64,000 nucleotides of DNA from a bacterium (GTDB lineage: Bacteria > Electryoneota > Electryoneia > Electryoneales > Electryoneaceae). A program made the translations under genes and the position numbers. Within the stretch, counting starts at the first letter, position 1, and each line of letters begins with the position of its first letter. Below the pieces are notes generated by a model. That model made no database searches and was not told the DNA's origin. It worked only from the letters and a program-made list of their open reading frames with translations. The stretch covers positions 13,340 through 77,339 of the forward strand of contig JAHLLH010000013.1 of NCBI GenBank assembly GCA_020444265.1. Direction: 5' to 3'. Of this stretch, positions 28,904 to 45,215 are shown piece by piece.

Positions 28904-29007
28904 GTGGGACGAAGGACACAAGTTGTACAGCCAGTATCGAACTATTTGTCGAATTGCAGTTTCACACGTATCTTTCATTTTCCCCGCCACACTGAAGGGT
29001 GTACCTC

Positions 29008-31773
29008 ATGCCGTTGGGTTGGAATCGCATACATTTACTACTCGCATCTGTTGCCATCCTTTTCGTGTCAACGATTCACACCAAAGACCTCAGGGCTGAG
29101 CCAGCGTTCACGCCTTCCTTGAAGGACGCTCCCCGCGGCCCTGTCGCATCCCCTTTTCCTTACCGATCGTTTGCCGACATCCAGGCAGAAAACCGTGTCC
29201 ATGATGTCGGCAATATCCGTGTCAACGTTGCTAACTGGGGTTATATCGGCAACAAACAGCCGAACCTGGACGGCAACATGCTGGACCCATGCACGGGCGA
29301 CTGGGCACCGCAATTTGAATACCCGAGTGGCAGCGGGGTGCAGTATCTCTGGCAGTCCGGTGTCTGGATCGGGGCGGTCATCCGTGAAGAAGCTTTCGAA
29401 TACCCTCGGGTAAGCGAGGGGGTTTCTCCGACCACCTTTGAGACAGAAATGTATCCCGGCCCTCCTCCGGGCAACGGGATTGTGGAGCGATCCACCCGTG
29501 CAAACGCGTTCAACTGCCTCGGTGATTTTGTCAGCGACCCGCTGGCAGTCTCCGAACAGGATTTTTATGCCGTTTACAGCGATACCCATCGAGTCCGTCC
29601 GGGCGGTTCGACCATCGACAACCCAACCGACGGTCAGCACATTCCTCTTGGTATCAAGGTGACCCAACGTTCCTATGCCTGGTCCTACAACTACGCCAGT
29701 GATTTTATCCTGATTGATTACGAGATTGAGAATATCGCGGACAAGTACCTTAAAAATGTCTACGTGGGCCTGTATGTGGATGGGGATGTCGGTTCGATCA
29801 ACGAGGCGACACGTTACAACGATGACCTATGCGGGTTCATCCGGAACTTCACCTACCGACCGGAGGGGTCTCAGGATTCGGTCAACCTCACGATCAACTC
29901 CGCATGGATCGCAGACAATGATGGTCGAGCGGTGGGTGTTTCTTCCGGAAGCAATTTCGACAGCCCAGATGTCGTCGGCGCCCGGGTCGTCCGCGCCCCA
30001 AACCCGAAACTGCGTACATCCTTCAACTGGTGGGTGACCGGATCAAGCAATGAACTCGATTATGGACCAGCCTGGGTGGATGATCATTCACGCGGGGACT
30101 GGACACGCGACCAGGGCACGCCCTACGGCGATGAACGTCGCTATTTTCTTCTCTCCAACCGTGAATTCGATTTTGACCAGGTCTACGTCGATGAACCGGC
30201 TTACATCAGGAACAACCCACAAAGATTCGTCGATCGGTTTACTGGGGAAGTGCAGGAGGAACACGAGTGGCGTCCAACCACTCTCCCAAATCCCATTTCC
30301 GTAGCATCGGGTTTTGATACTCGCTACTTGCTCTCCTGGGGACCGTTGGGAGTCTTCGATTACATCGACGAAGCTGGGGAACGTGTATATCGTCTGAACC
30401 CTGGGGAACGATTCTCAATGACCGTCGCCTTTGTCGGTGGTCGCAATTTCCACGACCGGAACAACTTTCAATCTTCGAATACCCTGATCGACCCGACCAA
30501 GTACAATTACCTCGATTTTCAGGTCAATGCCGACTGGGCCGCCAAGGTGTACGACAACCCGATGATTGACACAAATGGGGACACATGGTTCGGGGAAGAT
30601 GCAGGGCTGGATGGTCTTTTCGGATTGATCCCGGGCGACTCGATCAGCTTCACCAGCTATGATGGAACACTCGTGGAAGCGATCTATCCCGGTGCAGATG
30701 AGGGAGAGGGTGATGGCATCCTCCAGCAGGAAGAAGATGAAGCACCCCGTCCTCAGAAATACGACTACACCGTCCTGAACAATCTGCTCGATGCCGGTGA
30801 TGGCGAACCGGACTTCCAGGGGCCTCCCCCACCTCCTTCACCCCAGATCAGATTCCGGACAGAGGGCAATGTCCTCTACCTGCAATGGAGTCCCTTTCCG
30901 AGTGAGGATTCGACGTACACGGACCCATTCTCGCACCTCAACGACTTTGAAGGTTACCGGATCTACGTCTCCAACTCGGGGCTCGAAACGGAATACAGTT
31001 TCCTCGCTGAATTCGACAAGGTCAATTTCGCTTATTTCAGCGACGATGACAGCCTGATGACCGTACCGGTCGGTCCAGAAGTGATCCCGGGTTTATCCCC
31101 CTTTGTGATCCATGAAACACCGGATGGAGAAGAAATCCAGGGCTTTCTGGCACCAGTCGGGAACAACATCGGAATGGATGATATTACGGTGAGTGACTCG
31201 CTCTATGAATATCGGGTCGGGGCCGTGAACGCACTTATCCCACGCTACTATGCGATTACCGCCTATGACTATGGTGATCCTCGTTCCGGTATTGAGCCGC
31301 TGGAAAGTGCCAAGGCAATCAGCTCCACCTTCATTGCTCCATCTGGCAATCCTGACCGTAAGCCGGGAGTCGTCCCAAATCCATATCGTGGCGACCAGAA
31401 TTACACGCAGCACTTCCTCCCATTGACCTTCAATAACATTGACACCTCCTTCGTCTCCTGGGAGAATCGGGATGATGGCACCCCCGAGTTTTACGGACAG
31501 ACAGATCGTCGAATCTACTTCTACAATCTGCCAGCGAAATGCATGATCCGTATCTTTACTGTATCTGGGGATTTGGTCCAGATGATCCAACACGATTCCG
31601 GTGTCAGGACGAGTCGTCTAAGCCAGTGGAATGCGGCCCATGCAGAACCCTGGAACCTGAACAACAGGAACAGTCAACAAGTCTCGTCTGGATTATATCT
31701 CTTTAGTGTGGAGGATCTCACCCCGGGGAATCGAGGTGACATCAATGTCGGCAAGTTTGTGATTATTCGCTAA
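29008..31773 (+). CDS. Large secreted protein with FN3-like region and T9SS-like C-terminal domain, function unknown
   Basis: Signal peptide; VHDVGNIRVNVANWG, FEYPSGSG, DFEGYRIY, YYAITAYDYG, VVPNPY...SGLYLFSVED...GKFVIIR. Start uncertain (28999 or 29008). Confidence 0.8.
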   Translation: MPLGWNRIHLLLASVAILFVSTIHTKDLRAEPAFTPSLKDAPRGPVASPFPYRSFADIQAENRVHDVGNIRVNVANWGYIGNKQPNLDGNMLDPCTGDWAPQFEYPSGSGVQYLWQSGVWIGAVIREEAFEYPRVSEGVSPTTFETEMYPGPPPGNGIVERSTRANAFNCLGDFVSDPLAVSEQDFYAVYSDTHRVRPGGSTIDNPTDGQHIPLGIKVTQRSYAWSYNYASDFILIDYEIENIADKYLKNVYVGLYVDGDVGSINEATRYNDDLCGFIRNFTYRPEGSQDSVNLTINSAWIADNDGRAVGVSSGSNFDSPDVVGARVVRAPNPKLRTSFNWWVTGSSNELDYGPAWVDDHSRGDWTRDQGTPYGDERRYFLLSNREFDFDQVYVDEPAYIRNNPQRFVDRFTGEVQEEHEWRPTTLPNPISVASGFDTRYLLSWGPLGVFDYIDEAGERVYRLNPGERFSMTVAFVGGRNFHDRNNFQSSNTLIDPTKYNYLDFQVNADWAAKVYDNPMIDTNGDTWFGEDAGLDGLFGLIPGDSISFTSYDGTLVEAIYPGADEGEGDGILQQEEDEAPRPQKYDYTVLNNLLDAGDGEPDFQGPPPPPSPQIRFRTEGNVLYLQWSPFPSEDSTYTDPFSHLNDFEGYRIYVSNSGLETEYSFLAEFDKVNFAYFSDDDSLMTVPVGPEVIPGLSPFVIHETPDGEEIQGFLAPVGNNIGMDDITVSDSLYEYRVGAVNALIPRYYAITAYDYGDPRSGIEPLESAKAISSTFIAPSGNPDRKPGVVPNPYRGDQNYTQHFLPLTFNNIDTSFVSWENRDDGTPEFYGQTDRRIYFYNLPAKCMIRIFTVSGDLVQMIQHDSGVRTSRLSQWNAAHAEPWNLNNRNSQQVSSGLYLFSVEDLTPGNRGDINVGKFVIIR

Positions 31774-31788
31774 ACAGCTGGCTTACCA

Positions 31789-34764
31789 TTATGTCTTTTC
31801 ATCGGTTCCTTCGCTGGTTTCCTGCTGGTCTAATCCTGCATCGAGTTGCTGCTCTTCGCTGCTCAATTCCAGGATTTTCATCCCTGCCGCATAATCCGCT
31901 TCACGTACCTCGGTGATATTGAGCAGACGACGCACGAGACTCTTCATCCTTTGGATGGTCTTCGGAATCCGATTGAGCTGATCCGCGATTTCCTTCGGAG
32001 CGGAGTCACGCATCTGACGTTCGTACAAATCGTAGACGCCACTTATAATCGCCAGAGGATTGTTGAATTCATGCGCCACCGATGCGGCCATCTGCTGTGC
32101 AGTGCGCAATCGTTCCGACTCGAGCTGCATCTCCCGGCTCGCGTGAAGCTGCTTGAGGGCGGTTTCCAGCTCACGAGTTCGCTCCTGGACTTTCCTCTCC
32201 AGTTGACGGTTCGCCCGCCGCATGGTTAAGACCTGTAACAGGTTGAAACCAAGGAAGAGTCCGAGAACAAAGAGGGCGACCAGCACACCGAACCACCAGG
32301 TACGGTACCAAGGCGGTGTAATCACCAGCGCCACTTCTGCTCCAGTCTGGTTCCAGACACCATCATTGTTGGAGCCACGAACCCGGAAGGTGTAGCGGCC
32401 AGGATTCAAGTTGGTGTAACTGACAAAACGACGATTCCCGCTGAACACCCAATCATCATTAAACCCATCGAGCATGTAAGCATACTCATTCTTTTCAGGA
32501 TTCGTATAGTTGAGCGCGGCAAATTCGAAGGCGAGCAGGTTCTTCGAGTAGGGAAGGGTGATCGTCTGATCCCCTTGTCGGGCTGAATTGTAAGGGATCT
32601 TTCGATCAAATGTGTTGATCGCGGTAATCTCAACCGGCGGGATGTAGGTATTCTCTTCGATGTGGTGCGGGTAAAAACTGTTCAAGCCGTATAGCCCGCC
32701 GAAAAAGAGTTCCCCATCTTTTGCGCGGTAGTAAGCGGACTGGTTAAACTCATTACTCTGCAGTCCATCATTCGCATTGTAGTTCCGGAAAGTGAGATTT
32801 TCAGGATTAAACCTGCAGAGCCCATTGTTCGTACTGAGCCAGAGGTTGCCCGCATCATCCGGCAGAATTCCATAGATGACATCATTAGGAAGACCATCCT
32901 GCATGTAGAATGAAGTGAAACTTTGGTCCTCAGGATTGTAACGATTCAGACCACCAGGTGTGCCAACCCAAATTCTCCCTTCCAGGTCTTCTTGTACGCT
33001 CAGCACCACATTGTGGCTCAAAGAAGCCGGATCATCCTCAGCGTGAACATAGGTTTCCACCTCCCCTTCACCACCGTCGGTATTGTGACGCGACAATCCA
33101 CCACCGCGCGTCCCGATCCAGATATTATTCTGGCTGTCATGGTAAATGACGGTGATAATGTTACGGTTCATCGTGGTGGGATCACCGGTATTTCGACGGA
33201 TATGGGTAAGCGTCCCCTTCTCCGTATTGATGATATCCAACCCGCTGCCGCCGGTACCGATGTAGAGACGGCCATCTTCATCTTCAAAAATGACACGGAC
33301 CCAATCATCCGACAGACGATCCTCTTCGTACCGAGTGAAGGTGCCGGCTCGTTCGTTCATCAGGCAGAGACCACCGCCACGAGTGCCGACCCAGAGTCGT
33401 CCTTTTCCATCACGATGGATTGCTCGAATACGGTCGCTGCTGATGGAACGTGGATTATCAGGTTTGTGACGGTAGTGGGTGACAATTCCGCGTGCACGAT
33501 CCACACGGTTCAAACCACCCATTTCGGTTCCGACCCAGAGGATGCCATCATCATCAATGTAGACGGCACGCACGTCACTCTGGCTTAATGAGTTTGGGTT
33601 GCTGGGAATCGAACGAAGCAGATTGAACCTGTTGCGTGCTCGGTCAAAACGAGATACTCCGCCGCCATTTGTCCCGATCCAAACACCACCTGAACGATCT
33701 TCGTAAAGACTCCAGATCAGGTCGTAGGCAATGCTGGAGGGATCAACTGGATTATGGCGAAAATGGTCGAAAGTACCTTGTTCGGGATTGTAACGGTCCA
33801 GACCATTTCCTTCCAATCCAACCCAGAGAGTTCCTTCGTGATCGAAGAGTAGCGCCGCAACTGCTCCTTCGCTTATTCCGTCACTACGTCCGGAGTGATA
33901 GCAGTAGGTATGCTTGACACGGAGGGATGCATCCAGACAGTTCAGGCCTTCTTGCGTACCTATCCAGAGTTCGCCTTCTTTTCCTTCTGTAAGGCTGAGG
34001 ATGTGGTCGGAATTCAATCCCAGCGTTTGCTTCCCCTGGGTGCTTGTATGATGAAAAGCTCCCAGTGCAGGATCCCAGCGATCAAGACCACCGCCGAAGG
34101 TGCCGACCCAGATCCAGCCATTACTATCCTGAAGCAAAGAGGTGATAAAATCGCTGGCGACGCTCCCCGGATCCTCAGGATCATGGCGCAAATGCTCGAT
34201 AGATCCAGTCAGTGGATCAAGACGATCGAGCCCACCACCGAAGGTGCCAATCCAGATTCGACCCTCGTTGTCTTCGAGCAGGGCACGTACTTCGTTATGA
34301 CTGATAGTAGAAGGGTTGCCCTCTTCATGGACATAGCGATAGAAGCGGTCTTCTTCGGGACGGTAGCAGCTCACTCCACCCTGGTAGGTCCCCGCCCAGA
34401 TCCAACCGCGACCGTCCTCGAGTAGCGTATAAACCCAGTTGCCACTCAACGTGGTCGAATCGCCAGCGACAGGTTTGTGCGTAGTAAACGAGTAGCCATC
34501 ATAAACATTGATACCATCCTGAGTTCCGAACCACATGAAACCACGCTGGTCCTGGAGGATGGCATTCACAGAATTCTGGCTGAGACCATCATTGCTGGTC
34601 AGCCTGTCAAAACGGAGATAGGAAAAACGGGAGGATATGCCATGGCCGTATCCGGGCATGATGGCAAACAGAGCGAGGCAGAGGACAATCAGTACTGCCC
34701 GGCGCAACCCTCGGTCATGTTTACCCACTGGCAAAATCCTCTGCAACGCTGCATCTGTTTCCAT
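31789..34764 (-). CDS. Membrane sensor (double beta-propeller + Y_Y_Y, TM, HisKA) with no HATPase domain
   Basis: Many WIGTxGGGL propeller repeats, YTNLNPGRYTFRVRGSN, TM, AHEFNNPL H-box. The protein ends about 90 aa after the His with no N/G1/F/G2 boxes. Confidence 0.9.
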   Translation of the reverse strand: METDAALQRILPVGKHDRGLRRAVLIVLCLALFAIMPGYGHGISSRFSYLRFDRLTSNDGLSQNSVNAILQDQRGFMWFGTQDGINVYDGYSFTTHKPVAGDSTTLSGNWVYTLLEDGRGWIWAGTYQGGVSCYRPEEDRFYRYVHEEGNPSTISHNEVRALLEDNEGRIWIGTFGGGLDRLDPLTGSIEHLRHDPEDPGSVASDFITSLLQDSNGWIWVGTFGGGLDRWDPALGAFHHTSTQGKQTLGLNSDHILSLTEGKEGELWIGTQEGLNCLDASLRVKHTYCYHSGRSDGISEGAVAALLFDHEGTLWVGLEGNGLDRYNPEQGTFDHFRHNPVDPSSIAYDLIWSLYEDRSGGVWIGTNGGGVSRFDRARNRFNLLRSIPSNPNSLSQSDVRAVYIDDDGILWVGTEMGGLNRVDRARGIVTHYRHKPDNPRSISSDRIRAIHRDGKGRLWVGTRGGGLCLMNERAGTFTRYEEDRLSDDWVRVIFEDEDGRLYIGTGGSGLDIINTEKGTLTHIRRNTGDPTTMNRNIITVIYHDSQNNIWIGTRGGGLSRHNTDGGEGEVETYVHAEDDPASLSHNVVLSVQEDLEGRIWVGTPGGLNRYNPEDQSFTSFYMQDGLPNDVIYGILPDDAGNLWLSTNNGLCRFNPENLTFRNYNANDGLQSNEFNQSAYYRAKDGELFFGGLYGLNSFYPHHIEENTYIPPVEITAINTFDRKIPYNSARQGDQTITLPYSKNLLAFEFAALNYTNPEKNEYAYMLDGFNDDWVFSGNRRFVSYTNLNPGRYTFRVRGSNNDGVWNQTGAEVALVITPPWYRTWWFGVLVALFVLGLFLGFNLLQVLTMRRANRQLERKVQERTRELETALKQLHASREMQLESERLRTAQQMAASVAHEFNNPLAIISGVYDLYERQMRDSAPKEIADQLNRIPKTIQRMKSLVRRLLNITEVREADYAAGMKILELSSEEQQLDAGLDQQETSEGTDEKT

Positions 34765-34911
34765 GATTCATTCAGACCTTCCAAGGTAGCGAACCAATAT
34801 CCAAAATTCCAGAAAAAGCAAATGTTGCCATACGCGAAACCGGGGACTCGCCTCACCCACTTGCCTCTGCCCCCACCATGCGACCATCTTCCCGCCTTGA
34901 AAGGGGACTTC

Positions 34912-35637
34912 ATGCCAGCCAGGGACCAACATACACTCCCTCTCCATTTTGAGGAACCATGCGACAAGGATCAGCTTGCCAGCAGGTTGACGCATCGGAT
35001 CGGAAAAGATGTCCACCTCACCCTGACACGGAACCGTGTTTCGATGGTCCATTTCCGTCACGAAGCGAAGCAGGTTCGGATTCGACTACACCGAAACATG
35101 TGCCACATGCCTGACGAGGTTTTGAACTCCTTGGCTGGCTGGATCCGTAAACCTGGAAAGAGTGGAGCCCCCGATCTGGTGCGTACCTACATCCGTTCCC
35201 TGCCTGCAGAAGAGCAACCGACACGCCGGAGACGTCCCGCCCAACTTGTACAGCAGGGAGATGTGCATGATCTCGGCTCTATCGCCCAGAGGGTCAACCA
35301 GGAACAGTTCAATGGATCGGTCACTGCTGGAGTATCCTGGGGTCGGGACACGTCCCGCACACCTGTTCGAGTGCGACGGATCGGATCCTATCACCGCGAC
35401 AGCAACACGATCACTATCCATCCGGTGCTCGATGATGTCCGAGTCCCGGAAGCGATTGTAGCCTTCACTATTTTCCACGAAATGCTGCATGCCCTGCAAC
35501 CAGCCACCCAGAAACGTCACCATGACAAGGCCTTCCGCCAGGCGGAGCAGGCCCACCCAGACTACGATTCCGTGCAACGCTGGATGAAGAAGCATAGCCG
35601 TCTGATGAACGGTGGCCACGGACGCAAACTCTCCTGA
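34912..35637 (+). CDS. SprT/YgjP-like zinc metalloprotease
   Basis: IFHEMLHAL HExxH motif with HHDKAF third-ligand motif; AAGGGGA RBS before MPARDQ. Confidence 0.75.
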   Translation: MPARDQHTLPLHFEEPCDKDQLASRLTHRIGKDVHLTLTRNRVSMVHFRHEAKQVRIRLHRNMCHMPDEVLNSLAGWIRKPGKSGAPDLVRTYIRSLPAEEQPTRRRRPAQLVQQGDVHDLGSIAQRVNQEQFNGSVTAGVSWGRDTSRTPVRVRRIGSYHRDSNTITIHPVLDDVRVPEAIVAFTIFHEMLHALQPATQKRHHDKAFRQAEQAHPDYDSVQRWMKKHSRLMNGGHGRKLS

Positions 35638-35735
35638 CTCAACTGATTTCCAATGCTTTCCCCTCTATCCCCCTTGCCTTTTCTGCCAATACTCTGCTAC
35701 GATGCAGACAACGGTGTAGCTGGCGGGAGGTCCAG

Positions 35736-36620
35736 GTGGGGAATCAGAAAAATCCGAGTAAACAAGCTTTGAAGAAGCGTGGCAATACGACCACCAGGAA
35801 GACCTCCCGCAACGGAGAGGTGGCGCTGCACGCTCCCAGTGAAAAGCTGAAGAAGAAGGTCTACGAAAAAGAACTGGCCCGTCTCCAGATCGAACTCGTC
35901 AAACTGCAATACTGGATCAAGGAGAAGGGACTGCGAGTCGTCATCCTCTTCGAAGGTCGTGATGCTGCCGGTAAGGGCGGCACGATCAAACGCATTGTTG
36001 AGCCACTTAACCCTCGCGGCGCACGCATTGTCGCCCTCGACAAACCCTCGGACCGTGAAAAAACCCAATGGTATTTCCAACGGTACATCGCTCACCTCCC
36101 CTCCGCAGGCGAGATGGTTTTTCTCGACCGCTCCTGGTACAACCGTGCGGGTGTCGAACGAGTGATGGGGTTTTGCACCGATGATGAATACCGTGAGTTT
36201 ATGCGCTCCTGTCCCGAGTTTGAACGGATGATCGTGCGCAGTGGTATCACACTGATCAAGTACTGGTTTTCGGTGAGTGACGAGGAGCAGGAACGTCGCT
36301 TTCAGGCACGGCTGGAAGATCCCACCAAGCGGTGGAAGCTGTCGCCGATGGACCTGGCAAGCCGTGAAAAGTGGGTTGAGTATTCGAAGGCGAAGGACGA
36401 GATGTTCTTCTATACGGATATCGAGGAGGCGCGCTGGTACGATGTGCCTTCGGATGACAAAAAACGGGCACGTCTGAATACCATCCGTCACCTGCTGTCG
36501 GTCATCCCTTACCAGGATCTGACCCCGGAACCGATCGAACTACCGGATCGACCGGCGGAGCGGGAAAGCTACAAACGCCCCCCACTGGACAAGTTTATCA
36601 CCATTCCGAACCATTACTGA
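35736..36620 (+). CDS. ppk2: Polyphosphate kinase 2
   Basis: FEGRDAAGKGGTIKR Walker A, FLDRSWYNRAGVERVMGF, RWKLSPMD lid; GGAGG RBS before GTG. Confidence 0.96.
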   Translation: MGNQKNPSKQALKKRGNTTTRKTSRNGEVALHAPSEKLKKKVYEKELARLQIELVKLQYWIKEKGLRVVILFEGRDAAGKGGTIKRIVEPLNPRGARIVALDKPSDREKTQWYFQRYIAHLPSAGEMVFLDRSWYNRAGVERVMGFCTDDEYREFMRSCPEFERMIVRSGITLIKYWFSVSDEEQERRFQARLEDPTKRWKLSPMDLASREKWVEYSKAKDEMFFYTDIEEARWYDVPSDDKKRARLNTIRHLLSVIPYQDLTPEPIELPDRPAERESYKRPPLDKFITIPNHY

Positions 36621-36635
36621 CAAGGTGATGGTCGA

Positions 36636-36799
36636 CGTCATTGCGAGGAATCAGGCAAAGCGAAACGTCGCCTGATGACGTGGCAATCCGGGTTGTTTTA
36701 CGGTGTCGCAGATACTGTTCCTTCTCACCCTGTTTGGGGGCTGACGCCCCAAATTCGACACAGATGGCCGCACAACGCTTTGCTTCGTTCGCAATGACG
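36636..36799. repeat. REP/MITE-like palindromic element (GTCATTGCGAG...TCGCAATGAC type)
   Basis: 11-bp terminal inverted repeats CGTCATTGCGA/TCGCAATGACG; internal TCAGGC...GCCTGA hairpin and CGTGGCAATCC motif; sits between convergent genes. Confidence 0.7.
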
Positions 36800-36824
36800 A
36801 AATAGGGTAATACCTGATTTTCGC

Positions 36825-36857
36825 AAAACAAAAACCCGGCTTGCAAGACAAGCCGGG
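36825..36857 (-). terminator. Intrinsic terminator of the transglutaminase-like gene
   Basis: CCCGGCTTG/CAAGCCGGG stem with TTTTTGTTTT on the minus strand. Confidence 0.8.
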
Positions 36858-36885
36858 GCACGAAAACAGCTCACATGGTCCCACC

Positions 36886-39333
36886 TTAGCGCAACGTATT
36901 CCTTAACCGACTTGGCAGGTTGAGATCATATCCCGCCTGGCTGAAGAGTAGCTTGCCCTCTTCATCGAAGTAGTAGACAAAAGGCGCGCCCTCATCGGTG
37001 CGATCCTCCAGGCCGAGTCGGGTTCGGTCGCCTTCGCTCAGTTTGTCGAGACCCTCGATATACCCGACATGCAACCCCTTCATGGTTATCTCATCCACCA
37101 GCCCGCGTGTGCGCTTCGAGGGTTCATTGTCTCCCAGAACGATCAGCAGGTGAGTGGTGCCCCGTTTCGGCTGCCAGTCGAGATCGGCAAGGCTGACTTC
37201 AAAGCCACGTGAGGAGGGCGGTTCTGGCGGTGGGGTGATGTCCAGCTTGATAGTCTGGATTTGCTCACTTGCCAGTTCCACCTGCTGTACTTGCATCGCC
37301 ACATCACCACGGCCATTGCGACGCCCGGCAAAAAGCAGGTAACTGCCCGGAGCAACCGTCACCACCGTACTCGACTCCTCTTCCTTCAGCTCGACAGGGT
37401 TATCCGACCGATAATCTGCGAGCCCCTTCTCCCCGATCGGAAGCAGCAGGAATTCGGAATACCACGATGGCGCACTGGTTGATTCGGCCCACTGTACGAT
37501 CACCATCGCAGGCTCCTCATAATGCGCTGCAACATCTGGAAGAGCATTCAGATCACCCAACTTTTCCGCTTGATCCGGTAAGAGAGGTAACCATGAACCG
37601 TTAAAATGGAATTCGAGCCACTCGCTGAAGGGCTGGCAGCGGGCCGGGATGCCTGCGCGACGCATCCGGTCGGTCCACCAGATGGTGGCACTCGCCTTGC
37701 TCACATGGACTCCATCGGCCAGCATGTGGTCAATGGTCACTGGCGGTAACGGACGTTGACGCGCTTCATCGTCCACAAAATCCGAATAGGCCGCAACATC
37801 CGCACGAATTTCATCCAGTGAAGCGTAGCTCGGCGATTCGGTCACGTAATCGGCAGGCAGACCGGTGCCGGGATATTCATAAGCAATCTGCGGGTCGAGG
37901 ACGTAGGGTTTCAGCTCATCTTCGCCCTCGAATCCAATCGGTGTTCGCGCCAACCAGCGATTCAGTACCTCGGGTGACACATCACGCAGATCTTTATCCG
38001 AGAGATTGGAGACGATAAAAACTGCTGTTTCCCGTTTTCCCTCGGGCTGGTCGAGGACACCATCCAAGATGGTTGCCTCGTTGCCAGGAGCCCGTTTCAG
38101 CGTCGCCAACAGATCGGCACCCCAGGCAGGGCTCGTTTCGGCAATCCAACGATCCAGCCATTCGCTGTCCCAACTACGATTGGCGTCGCGTTCCCGTCGC
38201 TTCCAGTTCCCCAAATCAATACGGTGCTGGGGAAGGATTTCTGGTCCACGCTCTCGATCAACTGGAGGCCAGGGGTAACTCAGGGTGAAAACCTGCGGGA
38301 CAGATGCTTCGGTATCAAGCGAAAGATGGGTTTCCCGACCGATCTGGGTGGTGAAGGATTGGAAGAAGAGCTCGCCCTTGTAGAGCCCCATAAGCAGGAA
38401 ATCGCCCTGCCCCATTTCAAGGGTGGCAACTCCTTCTTTCGGAACCAGCTCGACTATCGGACGAACCGCGCCAAAATTGAACAACGAGAACCAGACACGG
38501 TCTTCTTCGCCCCAATCCTCAGGCACATCGACCACAAGCTGTGCGGGGGAGACATAGTTACGAGTCACATTGATCGCAAACGATGACCCGATTTTCACTG
38601 CATCGGGATCATCTGCGGAAACCATCTTTCCGCGACTCAACAGCACACTGGCGCGAAGTACCGGATCGTCAAACCATGCCTGGTTCAAGCGTGGTGCCGG
38701 TTCGCATGCGCCCATGTACTTCCATCCCTCTTCCGTGTAGACCTCGATCCAGGCATGGTTATTATCCGAATGGGACCAGAACGGGACATACACCCCGCGC
38801 GCCGGGATGCCAACCGAACGCATCGCGTCAATTGCAACAATCATCATCTCGCCACATCGTCCGAATCCGCAGGAGAGGGTGGTCAAGGGACCCTGGTCTC
38901 GCCAATCGGTCGACTGGAACCCGACACGTTCTCCCAGCCACAGGTTTACCTCCAGTGCGGCGCGTGAAAGGCAGGAAATGGTATCGATCCGTGCCCCGAT
39001 CTCGTCCATGAATTGCCTGCGATAGGGCTGCAAGGGTTCATCATCAACACGCAATGGCAGGACATATCGACGGTAGATCTCGTCCGAATAGCTTTCTCCC
39101 CACGGGAATGCATGCTTCACCTCGAGGGCGGCGCGGAACCCATCGAGCAGCATGTCGGTGTCCGCTTCATACCAGTCGGCAGCGGTAAGTGCATCTGCAA
39201 AATGGACCGCCTCAACCGGATCGATTTCTTCTGCCTGGTCGAGGAACCGCTCTCGCCCGCTTGGTTGTTCAGCAAAGGATATCTGTGTCAGCAGCAGCAC
39301 CAACAGCAGGGTCGGCAGTGTGCGTCGAATCAT
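36886..39333 (-). CDS. Secreted transglutaminase-like (papain-fold) protein
   Basis: Signal peptide MIRRTLPTLLLVLLL; YVLPLRVDDEPL, GRCGE catalytic Cys, NHAWIEVY, MGACEP; a second degenerate repeat (RRAGIPAR...WLEF). Confidence 0.85.
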   Translation of the reverse strand: MIRRTLPTLLLVLLLTQISFAEQPSGRERFLDQAEEIDPVEAVHFADALTAADWYEADTDMLLDGFRAALEVKHAFPWGESYSDEIYRRYVLPLRVDDEPLQPYRRQFMDEIGARIDTISCLSRAALEVNLWLGERVGFQSTDWRDQGPLTTLSCGFGRCGEMMIVAIDAMRSVGIPARGVYVPFWSHSDNNHAWIEVYTEEGWKYMGACEPAPRLNQAWFDDPVLRASVLLSRGKMVSADDPDAVKIGSSFAINVTRNYVSPAQLVVDVPEDWGEEDRVWFSLFNFGAVRPIVELVPKEGVATLEMGQGDFLLMGLYKGELFFQSFTTQIGRETHLSLDTEASVPQVFTLSYPWPPVDRERGPEILPQHRIDLGNWKRRERDANRSWDSEWLDRWIAETSPAWGADLLATLKRAPGNEATILDGVLDQPEGKRETAVFIVSNLSDKDLRDVSPEVLNRWLARTPIGFEGEDELKPYVLDPQIAYEYPGTGLPADYVTESPSYASLDEIRADVAAYSDFVDDEARQRPLPPVTIDHMLADGVHVSKASATIWWTDRMRRAGIPARCQPFSEWLEFHFNGSWLPLLPDQAEKLGDLNALPDVAAHYEEPAMVIVQWAESTSAPSWYSEFLLLPIGEKGLADYRSDNPVELKEEESSTVVTVAPGSYLLFAGRRNGRGDVAMQVQQVELASEQIQTIKLDITPPPEPPSSRGFEVSLADLDWQPKRGTTHLLIVLGDNEPSKRTRGLVDEITMKGLHVGYIEGLDKLSEGDRTRLGLEDRTDEGAPFVYYFDEEGKLLFSQAGYDLNLPSRLRNTLR

Positions 39334-39579
39334 GATCCACTCCAGAAAAGGCTTTCTATGGGAAGCTGGGCTGAAAGGCACAGCTTTGGAATATAGGCCC
39401 AACGTCAAAGAGTGCAAGGATGCTGCTCGAGCGGATGCTACCCTTCAAACGAGACAAATCTGCCTTTCCCCCTGACTTCCATCCGAAATCATGTTATACT
39501 TCGCGAAGTTTAAAGAAGTGAACAAAGAAGCGGGGCATGAACGGTCATGTCCCAACGATTGTCTAAGGATTAAAACGGC

Positions 39580-41043
39580 ATGACAGACGATTTACAGCCG
39601 GGCAAGCCGATTGAGCAGCCCGAAGATGCCCTCGCCCCGATCACACGAGACCAACTGCCAGACAGCTACAATGAGGCTCTGAAACGTGCCAACTGGCCGG
39701 ACTTGATGCCGGTGCAGGCACGTACGATCCCCTATGTCCACAGCAAACGGGACATGATGATCCAGTCGAGGACCGGCTCAGGAAAAACAGGAGCCTTCGT
39801 CCTTCCGATGTTGGAGATCATCGATCCCACCGAAGCGAGCTGTCAGGCATTGGTCATGGTCCCGACACGAGAACTGGCGAAGCAGGTCGCCAGCGAGGCC
39901 CAACTCCTGCTGAAGGATGTCGGCATTCGAACCGTCGAAGTGTATGGCGGTGTCGGCTACAAAGCCCAACTCGATGGATTCCGCGCCGGGGCACACCTGG
40001 TTGTCGGTACGCCGGGTCGTATTCTAGACCATTTGCTTCGCGGCAATTTGTCCCTGGAGCACCTGCGGTTGCTGGTCTTCGATGAAGCGGATCGAATGCT
40101 CTCGATGGGGTTCTACCCGGACATGCGCGAGATGCAGCGCTACCTGCCTCGCCACCCTATTCAGGGTTACATGTTCTCTGCGACCTACCCGCCACGTGTC
40201 CGCAGCCTGGCGCAGCAGTTCCTGACCAAGCCTGGTTTCCTCAGCCTCAGCAGCGACAACATTCTTGTTGTCGAGACCGAGCACCGCTACACGATTGTCC
40301 CGGAGAGCGACCGGGATCGTGCGCTGGTCCGTCTCATCGAAATTGAGAACCCCACTTCCGCCCTGATCTTCTGCAACACGAAGGACAAGGTGCATTATGT
40401 GGCGACGGTGCTGAAACGGTTCGGCTATGACGCAGCAGAATTGTCGGCAGATGTCTCCCAGGCGGAACGTGAAAAGGTGATGGAACGTGCCAAACAGGGC
40501 ACCTTGCGCTTCCTGGTCGCCACCGACGTCGCGGAACGTGGGATCGATATCCACGAACTGTCGCACGTAATCCAGTTCGAGCTGCCGGACGATCCGGAAA
40601 CGTATGTCCATCGTGCGGGCCGAACGGGCCGTGCAGGGGCAAGTGGTGTGGTTATCACCCTTCTGACCCAGCTCGAGATGCGTCAATTGAAGTCCCTCGC
40701 CAAGCGGTTCAAGGTGACCATGATCGAGAAACCCTTGCCCAGCGAAGAGCAGCTGCGAGAGGTGGTCGCGGAACGCACCACGACTCTGCTCGAAGCGAAG
40801 ATGCGCGCCCGGGACCGTCTCAAGGTCGAGCGCATGGAACGTTTCTATCCTCTCGTACGCGCCTTGGCAGGCAGCGATGAAGAGCTCCCGCTGCTGGCGA
40901 TGCTGCTGGACGACTACTACCAGAACGAAGTCCATGCGCCGAAAGTGCCCTACGTCGATGAGCCAAGCAGCTACAAACCTGGCGGAGGACAAGGCGACAA
41001 GCCGAAGGGACATGGGCGTGGACGCGGAAAGCGTCGCCGCTGA
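39580..41043 (+). CDS. DEAD-box ATP-dependent RNA helicase
   Basis: SRTGSGKT, PTRELA, TPGR, DEAD, SAT, HRAGRTGR motifs; basic C-terminal tail. Confidence 0.96.
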   Translation: MTDDLQPGKPIEQPEDALAPITRDQLPDSYNEALKRANWPDLMPVQARTIPYVHSKRDMMIQSRTGSGKTGAFVLPMLEIIDPTEASCQALVMVPTRELAKQVASEAQLLLKDVGIRTVEVYGGVGYKAQLDGFRAGAHLVVGTPGRILDHLLRGNLSLEHLRLLVFDEADRMLSMGFYPDMREMQRYLPRHPIQGYMFSATYPPRVRSLAQQFLTKPGFLSLSSDNILVVETEHRYTIVPESDRDRALVRLIEIENPTSALIFCNTKDKVHYVATVLKRFGYDAAELSADVSQAEREKVMERAKQGTLRFLVATDVAERGIDIHELSHVIQFELPDDPETYVHRAGRTGRAGASGVVITLLTQLEMRQLKSLAKRFKVTMIEKPLPSEEQLREVVAERTTTLLEAKMRARDRLKVERMERFYPLVRALAGSDEELPLLAMLLDDYYQNEVHAPKVPYVDEPSSYKPGGGQGDKPKGHGRGRGKRRR

Positions 41044-41081
41044 CAAGACTGTTTCCAGTAAGACGTTTGAAAGGATAAAAA

Positions 41082-42908
41082 ATGTCGTTGCTGAGTGAAT
41101 TGACCAAGGACTATTTAAAGGTCCATGTGGCAAAAGAAGATGCTTTCTGGGCAGCGAAAATGGGTCTCTCATCCGCGATCCCTGGCGATGCTGAGAAACG
41201 TGAAATCGCGCTGAAAAACTTCATCTCGGATGCCTCCTGGCTTCCGAAACTGCGTGCCGAGCTCGAGCGGGGCGACCTTGAACATGCCGATCGCACCGCC
41301 CTCGAGGGATGGGTCAAGTTCTTCGAAGCCAATGCGATCGAGAGCGAAGATGCCAAGCAGGTTCAGCGCAAGATCATCGAGATGGAAGGCGTACTGAATC
41401 GAAATCGCCGGACGATGGAACTGGGCTATTTCGATCCCGATTCTGGTGACTTCATCCCGAAATCGGTTCAGATCCTGCACCTGATGCTGCTCTCCGAAGC
41501 GGATGAGCGCAAGCGCAAGGCGGCCTGGGAAGGGCTGCGTTCCATTGAAACCTTCATGCTCGAAAACGATTTCATCGAGATCGTCAAAGAGCGCAACCGT
41601 TTCGCCCGCCTTCAGGGCTATCCTGACTTCTATGCCTGGAAGGTGCAGGTGAGCGAAGGATTCAGCAAGGAACGTCTGTTCGAGCTGCTGGATGAGTTGG
41701 AAGAGAATTCACGGGATGCCTGTAAGGCCGCTATCGACAAAGTGGCGGATGAACACGGCGACAGTGCGGTCAAACCGTGGTCCTTCAAATACACTACATC
41801 CGGCGACCTTACATCTGAGAAGGACCCTTACCTGCGGTTCGATTCCGCGGTAGCGCAGTGGGGACGTACCTTCACCGCCCTCGGCATCCGTTATCGTGGT
41901 GCAACCCTCACCCTCGACCTGCTGGACCGTAAGGGCAAGTACGAGAACGGCTTCATGCATGGTCCTTCCCCCGCATTTGTCGAGGATGGGGAGTTCCGGC
42001 CTGCACGGATCAACTTCACGGCCAACGCCGCCGCTGGGCAAGTTGGCGCGGGCAACCGTGCGCTGAACACCCTCTTCCACGAGGGCGGCCATGCAGCCCA
42101 TTTCTCGAATATCGTGATGCCGGCTCCCTGCTTCGCGCAGGAGTTTGCTCCGACCTCGATTGCCTTCGCGGAAACCCAGTCGATGTTCCTTGACAGCCTG
42201 TGCAGCGATCCTGACTGGCTGGCGAAGTATGCGCTGGATGCCAATGGCAACCCGATGCCGAAGGAACTGGTCCACCGTATCCTCGAAGAAGAGCACACCT
42301 ACATGGCGCGCGAACTGCGCAAGATGATGGTGGTTCCCTACTTCGAACGGGCGATGTATGAGATGAGTGACGAAGAACTGACGCCGGAGAACCTGCTCAA
42401 GACGGCTCGTGCGACCGAAGAGAAGCTGATGTTCATGCCCTCGGACCGTCCCGTCCTCTCCATCCCCCACCTCGCCGAGTCCGAGTCGAGCGCGTACTAC
42501 CATGCCTACGTGCTGGCACAGATGGCAGTTTTCCAGACACGCGACTTCTTCCTGAAACGGGATGGCAAGATCACGGACAATCCGAAGGTGGGCGAGGATC
42601 TGGCGAAGGTCTACTGGCAGCCGGGCAACTCTGTCACCTTCCTCGAGTTGATTGAACGACTGACTGGCGAACCCTTCCGCGCGAAAGCAACGATTGAGCT
42701 GGTTAACAAACCGACCGAAACACTCTTCGCCGATGCGGACAATGCCATTGATCGTGCCCTCGAAGAGGGACCCTATCAGGGTGAAGTCGAACTGGATGCA
42801 AGTATCCGCTTGATTCACGGCGATGAAGTGGTTGCCAACAGTGAAAAGGGCGGTTTTGCAGCAGCCGCTTCTGCTTATGGCAAGTGGATTCGCGCACAGG
42901 CAGACTGA
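41082..42908 (+). CDS. M3 family metallopeptidase
   Basis: LFHEGGHAAHF HExxH, AETQS third ligand, YYHAY, FARLQGYPDFY. Confidence 0.88.
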   Translation: MSLLSELTKDYLKVHVAKEDAFWAAKMGLSSAIPGDAEKREIALKNFISDASWLPKLRAELERGDLEHADRTALEGWVKFFEANAIESEDAKQVQRKIIEMEGVLNRNRRTMELGYFDPDSGDFIPKSVQILHLMLLSEADERKRKAAWEGLRSIETFMLENDFIEIVKERNRFARLQGYPDFYAWKVQVSEGFSKERLFELLDELEENSRDACKAAIDKVADEHGDSAVKPWSFKYTTSGDLTSEKDPYLRFDSAVAQWGRTFTALGIRYRGATLTLDLLDRKGKYENGFMHGPSPAFVEDGEFRPARINFTANAAAGQVGAGNRALNTLFHEGGHAAHFSNIVMPAPCFAQEFAPTSIAFAETQSMFLDSLCSDPDWLAKYALDANGNPMPKELVHRILEEEHTYMARELRKMMVVPYFERAMYEMSDEELTPENLLKTARATEEKLMFMPSDRPVLSIPHLAESESSAYYHAYVLAQMAVFQTRDFFLKRDGKITDNPKVGEDLAKVYWQPGNSVTFLELIERLTGEPFRAKATIELVNKPTETLFADADNAIDRALEEGPYQGEVELDASIRLIHGDEVVANSEKGGFAAAASAYGKWIRAQAD

Positions 42909-42936
42909 TTCTATGCAACACGGTACACACGTGGGT

Positions 42937-42965
42937 GGCCCGGGTCTGATGACCCGGGCTTCTTT
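42937..42965 (+). terminator. Intrinsic terminator of the helicase-peptidase pair
   Basis: GGCCCGGGTC-TGAT-GACCCGGGCT followed by TCTTT. Confidence 0.8.
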
Positions 42966-43065
42966 GTAGGGGCATCTTTGTGGGGATGGATTTGCTTTGT
43001 GCTGGTCACGAGAAAGAATCAAGCGTGGTAAACTGCGCTTACCTCAACTCCCCTACCCGAACAAT

Positions 43066-43716
43066 TTACTCAGTTGGAAGGTCGGCATTGAGGTCGTCTG
43101 CATCGGTATCCCGTCCAAGCTCGGCTCCATCATCATCGATATCGAGAATTTTCAGCGCGGCGGCATAGTCGGCTTCGCGCAGGGTACGCAGCCGAAGCAG
43201 TTTGCGTACCAGGCTGTGCATCCGTTGTACCTGGAGATTCACCCGTTCCATCCGTTCCCGCAGCATCTGGTCGGTGGATCGATCAATCTGAGTCAGGTCG
43301 CTGAAACCCTGGATGATGCCAAGCGGGTTGTTGAACTCGTGGGCAATGGTTGCGGCCAGCTGATTCAGGGTTTGTAAACGTCGCGCCTCAAGCTCCGCCT
43401 CTTTCGCCTGCTCCAGCTGCTGCATCGCCAAGTCCAGCTCGGCGGTGCGTTCGGCGAGAAGTCGTTCCAGCTCTTGTTGATGCTCCAGTTCGACTCGTTC
43501 ACGTGAGCGAACCGCCAGCAAGACTACAGCGATAAGGAGAAGTAAAGCAAGGAGTTGGACCCACCAGATGTGGTAGACTGGCAACTGGGTGGTGGACAAC
43601 GGTTCAAGGTTCGCAAGGGCAAATGCGATGCTGCCAGCGGCGATGATCAGGATCACCAGCAACGCGAAAAGGTCCAGTCCCCTTCCATGCAAACCACTTT
43701 TCCCCGATTTCCCCAC
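43066..43716 (-). CDS. Small 2-TM HisKA-only protein with no HATPase domain
   Basis: Two TM helices with a short loop, ERTAEL coiled coil, AHEFNNPL H-box, ends READYAAALKILDI plus an acidic tail. Confidence 0.85.
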   Translation of the reverse strand: MGKSGKSGLHGRGLDLFALLVILIIAAGSIAFALANLEPLSTTQLPVYHIWWVQLLALLLLIAVVLLAVRSRERVELEHQQELERLLAERTAELDLAMQQLEQAKEAELEARRLQTLNQLAATIAHEFNNPLGIIQGFSDLTQIDRSTDQMLRERMERVNLQVQRMHSLVRKLLRLRTLREADYAAALKILDIDDDGAELGRDTDADDLNADLPTE

Positions 43717-43964: not shown

Positions 43965-45215
43965 ATGACCAGGCAGGAACAAGCCCTTCTGAAAGCAACC
44001 CGTTCCGTCCTTGATGCGAACGATACGTTACACATCATCCTCCAGATTCTCTCTGCTGGACAGGACCTGCTGCAAGCGGAAGCGGCTTCCCTCTTCCTCG
44101 TGGATACCAGACGTCGGGTGCTGCGCATGGCAGCAGCCACCAATTTGCCTCAAAAGGTTTGGAAAACAATTGAAGTTCCGTTGGGACAGGGAATCAGCGG
44201 CTGGGTCGCCGAGCAAGGTGAATCAGTTCGTGTCACCGATGTATCCAGCGATCCTCGACACTTCTCCGGCGTTGACCGTCAAACCGGATTCAAAACCCGT
44301 GGCTACATGTCAGTACCATTGCTTGTCGGGGAAGAGGTCATCGGCACACTTCAGGTACTGAACCAGACCAGCGGTGGGTCTTTTTCGCGTCAGGACGAGG
44401 AACTGCTGGAAGGGTTTGCAGTCATCGCTGCACTGGCGATTAATAAGCGACTGATGCACAAAGCGGAATTGGAAAAGGAGCGAATGGAAGCCGAGCTGAC
44501 GGTGGCGGAAGCCTTTCAGCGACGTTTGCTACCGGACGATTTCCATGCTCCGGACGGGATTACGGTTCACGGTTACCACCTTGCCGCACGTTCCATGGGC
44601 GGGGATCTCTATGACGGTTTCCCCTCCGGGAAAGATGGATTTACCTTCCTCATCGGAGATGTCAGTGGTAAGGGTCCGGGCGCAGCGATCTGGATGTCCG
44701 GCTTTTCCAGCGCGGTTCGACTTATCGCGCGAGAAGGTCGTGACCCGCTCGCTGAATTGCAGCTTCTCGACCAGCACATGCACCATCTGCTGCCTGCCGA
44801 ATCCTTCCTCACCCTCTTCATCGCACGAATTGAGGACAACGAGCTCCATTATTCGAGCGCGGGTCATAATTCGATGTTGTTGATGCAACCGGATGGCAGC
44901 CATCGCTGGTTGGAGTCAACTGGTTTGCCGATCGGGATGATGCCCGATTTCCCCCGTGAATTGGGGCAGGTTCCCTTCCCTGCAGGCAGCCGTCTCATCC
45001 TCTTCACCGATGGCATTACCGAAGCGGAAAACCCAGCCGGGGACATGTACGAAGAAGATCGTCTTCTGAACATCGTCCAGCGAAACATCGCCCAGCCTGA
45101 TGATATTCTGGTAAACCGTGTGGTTCGTTCGGTGAAACGGTTTTCCAACGGTACTGAACAATCCGATGACATCACCCTGCTGGTCGTCTCAAGCAATGGC
45201 AACCTAGAATCATGA
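43965..45215 (+). CDS. GAF + PP2C/SpoIIE (RsbU-like) serine phosphatase
   Basis: GAF (GQGISGWV...DVSSDPR); MGGDLYD, IGDVSGKG, AGH, FTDGITEA, QSDDITLL; AGGAG RBS. Confidence 0.93.
   Translation: MTRQEQALLKATRSVLDANDTLHIILQILSAGQDLLQAEAASLFLVDTRRRVLRMAAATNLPQKVWKTIEVPLGQGISGWVAEQGESVRVTDVSSDPRHFSGVDRQTGFKTRGYMSVPLLVGEEVIGTLQVLNQTSGGSFSRQDEELLEGFAVIAALAINKRLMHKAELEKERMEAELTVAEAFQRRLLPDDFHAPDGITVHGYHLAARSMGGDLYDGFPSGKDGFTFLIGDVSGKGPGAAIWMSGFSSAVRLIAREGRDPLAELQLLDQHMHHLLPAESFLTLFIARIEDNELHYSSAGHNSMLLMQPDGSHRWLESTGLPIGMMPDFPRELGQVPFPAGSRLILFTDGITEAENPAGDMYEEDRLLNIVQRNIAQPDDILVNRVVRSVKRFSNGTEQSDDITLLVVSSNGNLES

Follow-up and report, generated by a model that had tools for sequence, protein, structure and literature searches.

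What can a membrane sensor contribute to signalling when it carries the phospho-acceptor domain of a histidine kinase and lacks the domain that binds ATP? The question is raised by two genes, named here P0001 and P0002, in a 64,000-nucleotide stretch of an Electryoneaceae genome (contig JAHLLH010000013.1; "the window" means this whole stretch). It was found that both belong to a single-origin family of sensors, expanded in this lineage, whose sole output is a module made of the DHp helices of a HisKA domain followed by a beta-hairpin. These proteins are tentatively read as sensor-gated phospho-acceptors or relays, which would also act as phosphatases where the residue four positions after the phospho-acceptor His (H+4) is Asn or Thr. 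A probability of about 45% is given to this reading. The features of the two genes are as follows (TM, transmembrane):

31789-34764 (-), P0001, 991 residues: signal/TM segment, Reg_prop x12, Y_Y_Y, TM segment, coiled coil, HisKA, hairpin and acidic end.
32320-34632 (-), sensor part of P0001, predicted to be extracytoplasmic, residues ~45-815, made of beta-propeller repeats and Y_Y_Y (Pfam stretches; its place between the N-terminal hydrophobic segment and the TM segment was read from the sequence).
32227-32298 (-), TM segment of P0001, residues ~823-846, WWFGVLVALFVLGLFLGFNLLQVL (read from the translation, no TM predictor).
31864-32211 (-), output module of P0001, spanning residues 852-967, with His898-Glu899 and Asn902 in the DHp helices and the hairpin after them (BLASTP and profile).
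31864-31905 (-), hairpin tail of P0001, residues 954-967, READYAAGMKILEL, with Tyr958 (alignment A1, described below, and homology to the AlphaFold2 model of the P0002 module).
31792-31863 (-), acidic low-complexity C-terminal extension of P0001, residues 968-991 (sequence and family statistics).
43066-43716 (-), P0002, 216 residues, GTG start: two TM segments, an outer loop of ~13 residues, coiled coil, HisKA, hairpin and acidic end.
43510-43671 (-), two hydrophobic (TM) segments of P0002, residues ~16-69 (read from the translation, no TM predictor).
43138-43479 (-), output module of P0002, residues 80-193: His126-Glu127, Asn130 and the conserved Arg165, then the hairpin (BLASTP, alignments and AlphaFold2).
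43138-43179 (-), hairpin tail of P0002, residues 180-193, READYAAALKILDI, with Tyr184 (AlphaFold2 strands).
43069-43137 (-), acidic disordered C-terminal extension of P0002, residues 194-216 (AlphaFold2 and family statistics).

The two open reading frames had been described in the original prediction as HisKA sensors without HATPase_c, and both Pfam and a hidden Markov model (HMM) of the ATP-binding (CA) domain agree with this. HisKA (PF00512) scored 40.0 bits in P0001 and 42.7 bits in P0002, above the Pfam gathering cut-off of 26.9 bits, and P0001 also matched Reg_prop (216.8 bits, 12 stretches) and Y_Y_Y (75 bits). As expected for HisKA, the H-box reads AHEFNNPL in both proteins and the AlphaFold2 model contains the helix-loop-helix; the CA domain of a canonical HisKA plus HATPase_c kinase is missing. 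No Pfam match to HATPase_c was obtained in either protein even at E ≤ 1, nor any to Hpt (PF01627) at E ≤ 1, and SPOB_a reached 18.1 bits in P0002, under its Pfam cut-off of 28.1 bits. In NCBIfam many named kinases gave matches, all of them partial, below threshold and within the DHp region.

The outputs of the two sensors are closely similar, as had been noticed. Residues 852-967 of P0001 and 80-193 of P0002 are identical at 55 of 116 positions (47%, E 1e-25, BLASTP), in an alignment that spans the strings ERTxEL, AHEFNNPL, QRMxSLVRxLL and READYAAxxKIL. This likeness lies well above the HisKA background: for the canonical HisKA domains of the same genome, identity to the P0002 module is no more than 24-38% (E values from 6.9e-11 to 9.4e-4). 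Past the hairpin, 24 residues remain in P0001 and 23 in P0002. Convergent genes follow both stops, 28999-31773 (+) after a gap of 15 bases for P0001 and 41082-42908 (+, Peptidase_M3) after 157 bases for P0002, and they leave no room for the downstream CA gene, already reported as absent, or for a CA remnant.

The module is not confined to these two genes. The genome, denoted G000, is a 4.33-Mb assembly in 19 contigs with 94% completeness. Module search and inspection of open frames gave 12 tail-bearing paralogues in it, P0001 and P0002 among them, and three divergent members with HisKA fused to a receiver (REC) domain, which brings the family to 15 open reading frames. The sharing of an output by the pair is real, and its scale had been underestimated. 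An alignment of the 12 paralogues, A1, served as a profile and was run against all open frames of the genome. The 12 stop 1-9 residues after the module; in P0001 the match covers profile positions 2-130 and stops 8 residues short of the C-terminus. By comparison, 32 canonical kinases matched only to profile positions 90-108 and then extended for 153-410 residues. Three weaker matches, the REC-HisKA proteins, stop within 6-20 residues. The high scores of the 12 are expected by construction, since they trained the profile; their common end point is not explained in this way.

The CA-domain HMM, for which 30 of the genome's own canonical kinases were used, matched 53 open reading frames of the genome as a control and none of the 15 family members. 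The inputs of the 12 vary: propeller/Y_Y_Y, multi-TM, GAF/PAS or coiled coil only. The REC-fused trio has lost the Glu at H+1 and the Pro and has kept the His, the Asn at H+4 and the tail, a pattern of residues which suggests that these three may be relay-only or phosphatase-only.

The same organisation was found beyond this genome. When 1.84 billion cluster representatives were searched exhaustively with the profile, 35 proteins passed E ≤ 1e-30 and 3647 passed the looser limit of E ≤ 1e-10; the detailed figures given here refer to the best 150 of these 3647. Continuation of close homologues into HATPase was a check set beforehand: 136 of the best 150 end ≤40 residues past the module (93 of them ≤10). 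In the other 14 ("fusions") the module lies mid-protein, and a second HisKA, of the canonical kind, comes after it, with 129-172 residues remaining. A Pfam scan covered 78 of 151 proteins, namely a portion of the 150 together with the canonical kinase P0005. HATPase_c was detected only in P0005 and the 7 fusions scanned and in none of the 70 CA-less proteins, where HisKA is the last domain, behind Reg_prop/Y_Y_Y, PAS, dCache, REC or nothing. Over all 151 proteins, the CA HMM matched only P0005 and 13 of the 14 fusions, and none of the 136 CA-less representatives. The remaining fusion, P0077 (551 residues, from a metagenome), is the sole one whose C-terminal 129 residues miss the CA HMM; its end is Gly/Arg-rich, like a frameshifted or mis-called terminus.

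The fusions keep the module intact, with the His and the tail; they mostly have Gln at H+4 and lie beside a canonical DHp with the phosphatase motif. A REC domain was found in none of the 7 scanned by Pfam. Taken over the whole family, the module occurs on propeller, PAS, GAF, Cache, REC and TM-only inputs, which agrees with the modular output originally proposed.

Conservation was evaluated over the 150 modules. The phospho-acceptor His and the tail Tyr were present in all 150, the Glu at H+1 in 148 and the Pro at H+5 in 146, counts which are partly circular as the proteins were picked by a profile built from these same paralogues. Position H+4 was Asn in 97 modules, Gln in 39, Thr in 11 and Ser in 3. 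Within the tail, Gly was found at Tyr+3 in 112 of 150 and Asp at Tyr+8 in 128, and positions Tyr+6, +7 and +9 are hydrophobic. In a 60-sequence alignment only the His, the Glu and the tail Tyr are invariant. The acidic ends seen in the two sensors proved to be a real trait of the family: among 135 CA-less relatives the extension after the hairpin has a median of 17 residues and 27% Asp plus Glu, and is net negative in 105.

The AlphaFold2 model of the P0002 module, computed with the 60-sequence alignment, had a pLDDT of 83.3. It shows helices at 2-61 and 67-91 (module numbering) and a beta-hairpin formed by READY (97-101) and LKILD (105-109). Over residues 91-110 the block-mean pLDDT is 78 and 74; the C-terminal extension has no secondary structure (block means 55, 55 and 64). 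An independent model of the fusion P0139 (pLDDT 89.5) gave the same arrangement in a second subfamily, with helices at 120-173 and 179-202, strands at 209-212 and 216-219, and the Tyr at 212. There the module is followed by a low-confidence linker, a canonical DHp (246-324) and a CA domain opening with a strand at 332-334. The tail had been taken for a docking motif. In the models it is not a terminal linear motif; it is a predicted beta-hairpin at the site of the DHp-CA linker and strand beta1, followed by the acidic extension or by a linker and further domains. Since helix 2 of the model stops some six residues above the His, helix geometry would place the hairpin near the phosphorylation site.

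The best structural matches of the P0002 module model were DHp domains, headed by the GacS DHp in the RetS complex (7n0e_A, Z 8.9, rmsd 1.3 over 59 residues), and Z values up to 8.9 are not distinctive, being common for helical hairpins. With Foldseek, no match in the PDB reached E ≤ 0.001. A second structure comparison aligned the helices alone (Z ≤ 8.9), with the hairpin outside the alignment, and a sequence search of the PDB with the profile returned 18 kinases whose alignments stop by profile position 109.

An origin for the tail is suggested by the kinases of this genome. When the conserved Arg of helix 2 is used as anchor, the second strand of the tail is offset by no more than 2-3 residues from the canonical "h-h-D/N-L-N" strand, which lies upstream of the first CA helix. 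Because the two strands nearly coincide, the family proteins appear to end just past the former CA strand beta1, and the tail, judged by this alignment, is the former DHp-CA linker plus CA beta1, about 3 residues longer. A tree was computed from the 45 HisKA domains of the genome on the DHp columns only (65, tail excluded) and is weakly resolved; in it, 11 of the 12 paralogues, together with the 3 REC-fused members, lie across a 93/94 branch from the 30 canonical kinases. The exception is the member on contig C9, which sits on a long branch among canonical kinases. A single clade for all 12 is not rejected by the approximately unbiased (AU) test (p 0.33), and the DHp-column tree agrees with a common derived tail. 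These comparisons suggest that the CA domain was lost once, directly past strand beta1, and that the module then spread onto varied sensors and expanded in this lineage. P0002 itself appears to have arisen recently as a pared-down paralogue of the propeller type, since the 15 sister genomes match only its residues ~45-195, within propeller sensors of ~1000 residues; a full-length orthologue of P0002 was found in none of them.

Several known systems share part of this architecture. Hybrid sensors of the Bacteroides type combine Reg_prop x2, Y_Y_Y, TM, HisKA, HATPase_c, REC and HTH_AraC. P0001 is like them in its propeller and Y_Y_Y input, its TM segment and its HisKA, and unlike them it is without HATPase_c, REC and a DNA-binding domain. 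Spo0B of Bacillus is a kinase-derived protein that carries phospho-His on a DHp-like helix pair and relays phosphate between receivers; it has a degenerate CA-like domain and no sensor. Spo0B and ChpT of Caulobacter keep the degenerate CA-like domain and have no sensors, whereas in the present family the CA domain is gone save for a hairpin of ~14 residues and the proteins are sensors, P0001 and P0002 ending 23-24 residues past that hairpin. The likeness to ChpT, a dimeric histidine phosphotransferase, lies in the kinase-derived, DHp-like helix pair, on which ChpT carries phospho-His for relay between receivers (PMC3433190).

RedE, of the RedCDEF system of Myxococcus xanthus, is described as unable to autophosphorylate; it takes phosphate from the receiver RedD and dephosphorylates RedF-P (PMC2755868, in the portion used here). 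Compared by description only, RedE keeps HATPase_c, has a weak HisKA and is soluble without a sensor domain, whereas P0001 and P0002 have no HATPase_c. Split kinases offer another parallel. According to the relevant part of PMC3591291, EnvZ is functional in vitro when divided into two polypeptides, domains A and B (as cited there), and CheA3/CheA4 of Rhodobacter sphaeroides hold the acceptor and ATP-binding parts on separate polypeptides, the free acceptor part being a phosphatase. The CheA pair uses an Hpt-type P1 domain, while the family described here uses DHp.

The general class to which P0001 and P0002 belong is already known. As "HisKA, no HATPase", or "possible incomplete histidine kinases" in P2CS, such proteins have been catalogued, with no member tested as far as the cited passages go (PMC5847659, PMC1183210, PMC3591291), and the same three functional guesses as are weighed below were made there (PMC5847659, PMC3591291). 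A SMART count put them at 3.66% of HisKA proteins (PMC3591291, same passages), and the class is also named in the abstract of a preprint on the opposite case (10.64898/2026.02.27.708494). P0001 and P0002 fit its definition, in the wording available from PMC5847659, as sensors with a C-terminal HisKA that retains the His and no recognisable HATPase. N-terminal sensors, a C-terminal HisKA with conserved His and REC-PAS-HisKA forms are shared with the class, which is defined by absence and, in the sections consulted, found mainly in Archaeoglobi and Methanomicrobia. The present family differs in being bacterial and, as far as the class has been described, in having a positive signature, propeller/TM inputs, up to 15 copies per genome and kinase-core fusions. 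No characterised family matches the module. In word searches of open-access full text and bioRxiv, no description was found of a bacterial DHp with the beta-hairpin/invariant-Tyr signature, of origin by truncation just after CA beta1, of expansion to 12-15 sensors per genome or of fusions to complete kinase cores. What appears to be new is a large bacterial subfamily with a positive sequence and structure signature within a known class.

How might such a module work? The family proteins cannot autophosphorylate, because they have no ATP-binding domain. In the favoured reading the His would be phosphorylated from outside, by the CA domain of a complete kinase in trans or by a phosphorylated receiver. 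The sensor domain would gate the transfer of phosphate onward to a response regulator and, in members with Asn or Thr at H+4, P0001 and P0002 included, also the dephosphorylation of the regulator. The working likeness would be to RedE of Myxococcus and to the DHp half of a split bifunctional kinase. We infer that the His is still phosphorylated, because the His and the Glu are conserved no less strictly than in functional kinases. A CA domain is a possible donor because the 14 fusions join the module to a second HisKA; 13 of them carry a CA domain, and REC was absent from the 7 that the Pfam scan covered. The gene overlap in family f9, described below, also links the module to a complete kinase. 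Phosphorylated receivers are the other possible donor, given that the genome encodes 18 hybrid kinases with a C-terminal receiver (CA-then-REC order) against a near-absence of Pfam Hpt; the receivers of these 18 would be the candidates. The Asn at H+4 leads us to expect both acceptor and phosphatase functions in P0001 and P0002.

The closest alternative, considered somewhat unlikely, is a pure signal-gated phosphatase, in which the DHp dephosphorylates a bound regulator, the sensor switches this activity and the His is never phosphorylated. It has been raised for the class by Galperin et al. (PMC5847659, in the passage cited) and requires no extra phosphate donor. Mutagenesis of HisKA in four kinases bears directly on it (PMC3510030, in the results drawn on here): Asn or Thr at H+4 is needed for phosphatase activity and N375Q in CrdS abolishes it, whereas the Glu of the H-E-x-x-N motif is needed for kinase activity and not for phosphatase activity, which is left intact by E372A and barely changed by H371A, the His being nearly dispensable for it. 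The whole H-E-x-x-N motif had been put forward as a phosphatase motif; this stands for position H+4, and the Glu belongs to kinase activity. The residue required at H+4 is Asn in P0001 and P0002, Asn or Thr in 108 of 150 modules, and Asn also in the REC-fused trio despite its loss of the Glu, all of which would suit a phosphatase. A pure phosphatase is nevertheless disfavoured, because the His (150/150) and the Glu (148/150) are near-invariant although they hardly matter for that activity, while H+4 is Gln, the very change that inactivated CrdS, in 39 of 150. Moreover, next to the fusion modules, which mostly have Gln at H+4, stands a canonical DHp in which the phosphatase motif is already present.

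A second alternative, regarded as distinctly less probable, is a non-catalytic regulator. The module would use its helices to pair with the DHp of some complete kinase, much as RetS pairs with GacS, and block that kinase or add a sensor to it, and the hairpin would contact the partner CA domain. The closest structural match of the module, the GacS DHp in the RetS complex, fits this, although a Z of 8.9 is common for helical hairpins. Gene order fits in two places: the member on contig C6 lies 131 bases upstream of a complete Y_Y_Y-HisKA-HATPase kinase on the same strand, and the member on C11 has a PAS-HisKA-HATPase gene and a REC gene as its divergent neighbours. Many sensors sharing few kinases would also explain the orphan genes. 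However, the family DHps group apart from all 30 canonical DHps and have no obvious pairing partner among them, most members are without a nearby kinase gene, and the invariant His and Glu are left unexplained by a purely structural role.

That the genes are decaying or assembly artefacts, truncated kinases without a function of their own, is hardly credible in spite of the draft state of the assembly (19 contigs): the same end point recurs in 12 paralogues, at least 40 of 79 phylum genomes and 136 of the best 150 representatives, in keeping with the earlier argument against random truncation, the tail Tyr is invariant, intact convergent genes follow both stops, and the synteny of single-copy members is conserved in 5 genomes, which together refute this reading.

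Several observations weigh against the acceptor/relay reading itself. Most of the 15 members in this genome are orphans, with no recurrent signalling neighbour among 57 annotated neighbouring proteins, and neither a donor of phosphate nor a target regulator emerged from the analysis. A stand-alone CA domain was not found in the genome: none of the 9 short or odd HATPase_c open reading frames is CA-only. The kinase cores of the fusions are generic and unrelated to the two sensor-less minimal kinases described below. Stand-alone Hpt proteins are present in some sister genomes that also carry the module. The circularity of the conservation counts has been mentioned, and the conservation of the Glu could be structural. 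The REC-fused trio, without the Glu and with the His, Asn and tail, fits a phosphatase or pure relay better than a substrate of a kinase acting in trans. The partners may also be unassembled in a 94%-complete genome of 19 contigs.

Candidate partners for the acceptor/relay function were looked for in the genome, which has 59 HATPase_c matches. The 9 short or odd frames that were scanned turned out to be two minimal kinases, two PAS-HATPase proteins (341 residues, cut at the locus edge, and 437 residues, both without a HisKA match), a weak-HisKA kinase (393 residues), an RsbW-like kinase, GyrB, a HisKA_2 kinase and a Y_Y_Y kinase. A CA-only partner was therefore rejected, no separate CA protein without its own DHp, as a split kinase would have, being among the nine. 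As the genome holds no CA-only protein, any CA donor would be a complete kinase. The two minimal kinases, of 259 and 265 residues (G000:C11:279797-280573 and G000:C9:245720-246514; loci L106 and L107), consist of a weak HisKA and HATPase_c only. They were considered as the missing halves and rejected, the kinase cores of 10 fusions being closest to generic NtrB-like kinases of the genome.

Pfam Hpt was represented in the genome by one CheA-like protein (two copies) and one weak match in a hybrid kinase, a result that rests on a single Pfam model. Set beside the 18 hybrid kinases, this near-absence of Hpt would leave a need for a relay. A complementary distribution of Hpt and the module was considered and dropped: 32 of 41 related genomes have Hpt, and in some of the genomes that carry the module it takes a small, stand-alone form.

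Within the window, no signalling gene lies between the two sensors. The genes found there are 34477-35637 (+), a SprT-like/YgjP-like metallopeptidase by Pfam, and 35736-36620 (+), 36886-39417 (-) and 39580-41043 (+), the last carrying a DEAD-box helicase motif in its sequence. The gene convergent with P0001, 28999-31773 (+), encodes 924 residues with no Pfam family at E ≤ 0.001. On its other side, P0002 is divergent from a phosphatase gene:

43965-45215 (+), GAF-SpoIIE (PP2C) phosphatase (Pfam SpoIIE, 154.4 bits, and GAF).

This gene is a possible functional neighbour of P0002. Two of the 7 SpoIIE genes in the genome adjoin family members, and the adjacency, noticed after the fact, is suggestive.

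Elsewhere in the genome, the C9 member lies within a partner-switching operon (G000:C9:711481-715421; locus L100:2482-6422) whose order is STAS, RsbW-like kinase, GAF-STAS, a HATPase_c_2/SpoIIE (RsbW/PP2C) fusion, a 179-residue coiled-coil HisKA-only protein and a single-domain REC. This operon joins Rsb-type and His-Asp signalling. One of the REC-module genes follows a hybrid kinase gene. Recurrent among the annotated neighbours, in raw counts, were cargo proteins of the type IX secretion system (T9SS) and MacB-type permeases; several family members adjoin proteins with T9SS sorting domains (Por_Secre_tail).

Two further arrangements were found in related families of the phylum. In five genomes of families f4 and f5, a single-copy member (GAF-PAS-HisKA, tail SYLGSTKMVDL) lies in a conserved same-strand flagellar array:

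L133:4639-13239 and matching stretches of L134, L135, L140 and L141, flagellar array: FlhF (TIGR03499, 209 bits), a MinD/FlhG-like ATPase, a 125-residue protein, FliA/WhiG (TIGR02479, 249 bits), HDOD, the module protein, DUF6115 and a 345-residue protein.

The 125-residue or the 345-residue gene was not found in one of the five genomes, and the 345-residue protein has no family match. A full-length orthologue of the flagellar copy was not found in G000. In family f9 (L136:86-7289 and L137), a gene for REC, PAS and the module overlaps a complete REC-PAS-HisKA-HATPase gene by 4 bases, in a run composed of a PAS-DHp protein without the His (279 residues), REC, REC-HisKA-HATPase, REC-PAS-HisKA-HATPase and REC-PAS-HisKA without CA.

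In a sample of the phylum, at least 40 of 79 genomes had a module match at E ≤ 1e-18; the genome and copy numbers below are lower bounds.

Family f1 (own family, excluding G000): at least 14 of 15 genomes, 1-15 copies each; G000 itself has 12.
Family f3: at least 9 of 16 genomes, 1-2 copies each.
Family f5: at least 8 of 9 genomes, 1 copy each.
Family f9: 6 of 6 genomes, at least 1 copy each.
Family f6: 0 of 24 genomes among the matches listed.
Family f2: 0 of 4 genomes among the matches listed.

The nearest named record with a family member is the metagenome-assembled genome (MAG) of Ca. Electryonea clarkiae (FCB group). A scan of contigs by H-box pattern gave true members in 3 of 79 loci (Ca. 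Electryonea clarkiae, a "MAG: bacterium" and a Zixibacteria MAG), the others being canonical kinases drawn in by the pattern. Word-indexed protein searches gave 3 matches of near length and 11 longer ones. In the ESM Atlas small HisKA-only clusters were seen, commonest in Myxococcota, which is a lead only.

Taken together, these results allow a wider and still doubtful picture. The DHp-hairpin would be an undescribed portable output module, through which a dozen or more sensors per cell gate phosphate from a few ATP-using kinases, or from hybrid kinases that have no Hpt, to shared regulators. The hairpin Tyr would be a new catalytic or docking residue replacing the CA contacts, and the single-copy member between fliA/HDOD and DUF6115 would be ancestral, which would tie the origin of the family to the control of motility.

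Proteins with the acceptor half and without the ATP half are routinely annotated as histidine kinases. The present results turn part of a class defined by absence into a definable family, with a signature, an apparent one-loss origin and expansion in a lineage, and the occurrence of the module fused to complete kinase cores in nature suggests that it works together with them. Whether the answer is relay, phosphatase or decoy, it would alter the way in which signalling networks are counted and wired in many uncultured bacteria of the FCB group.

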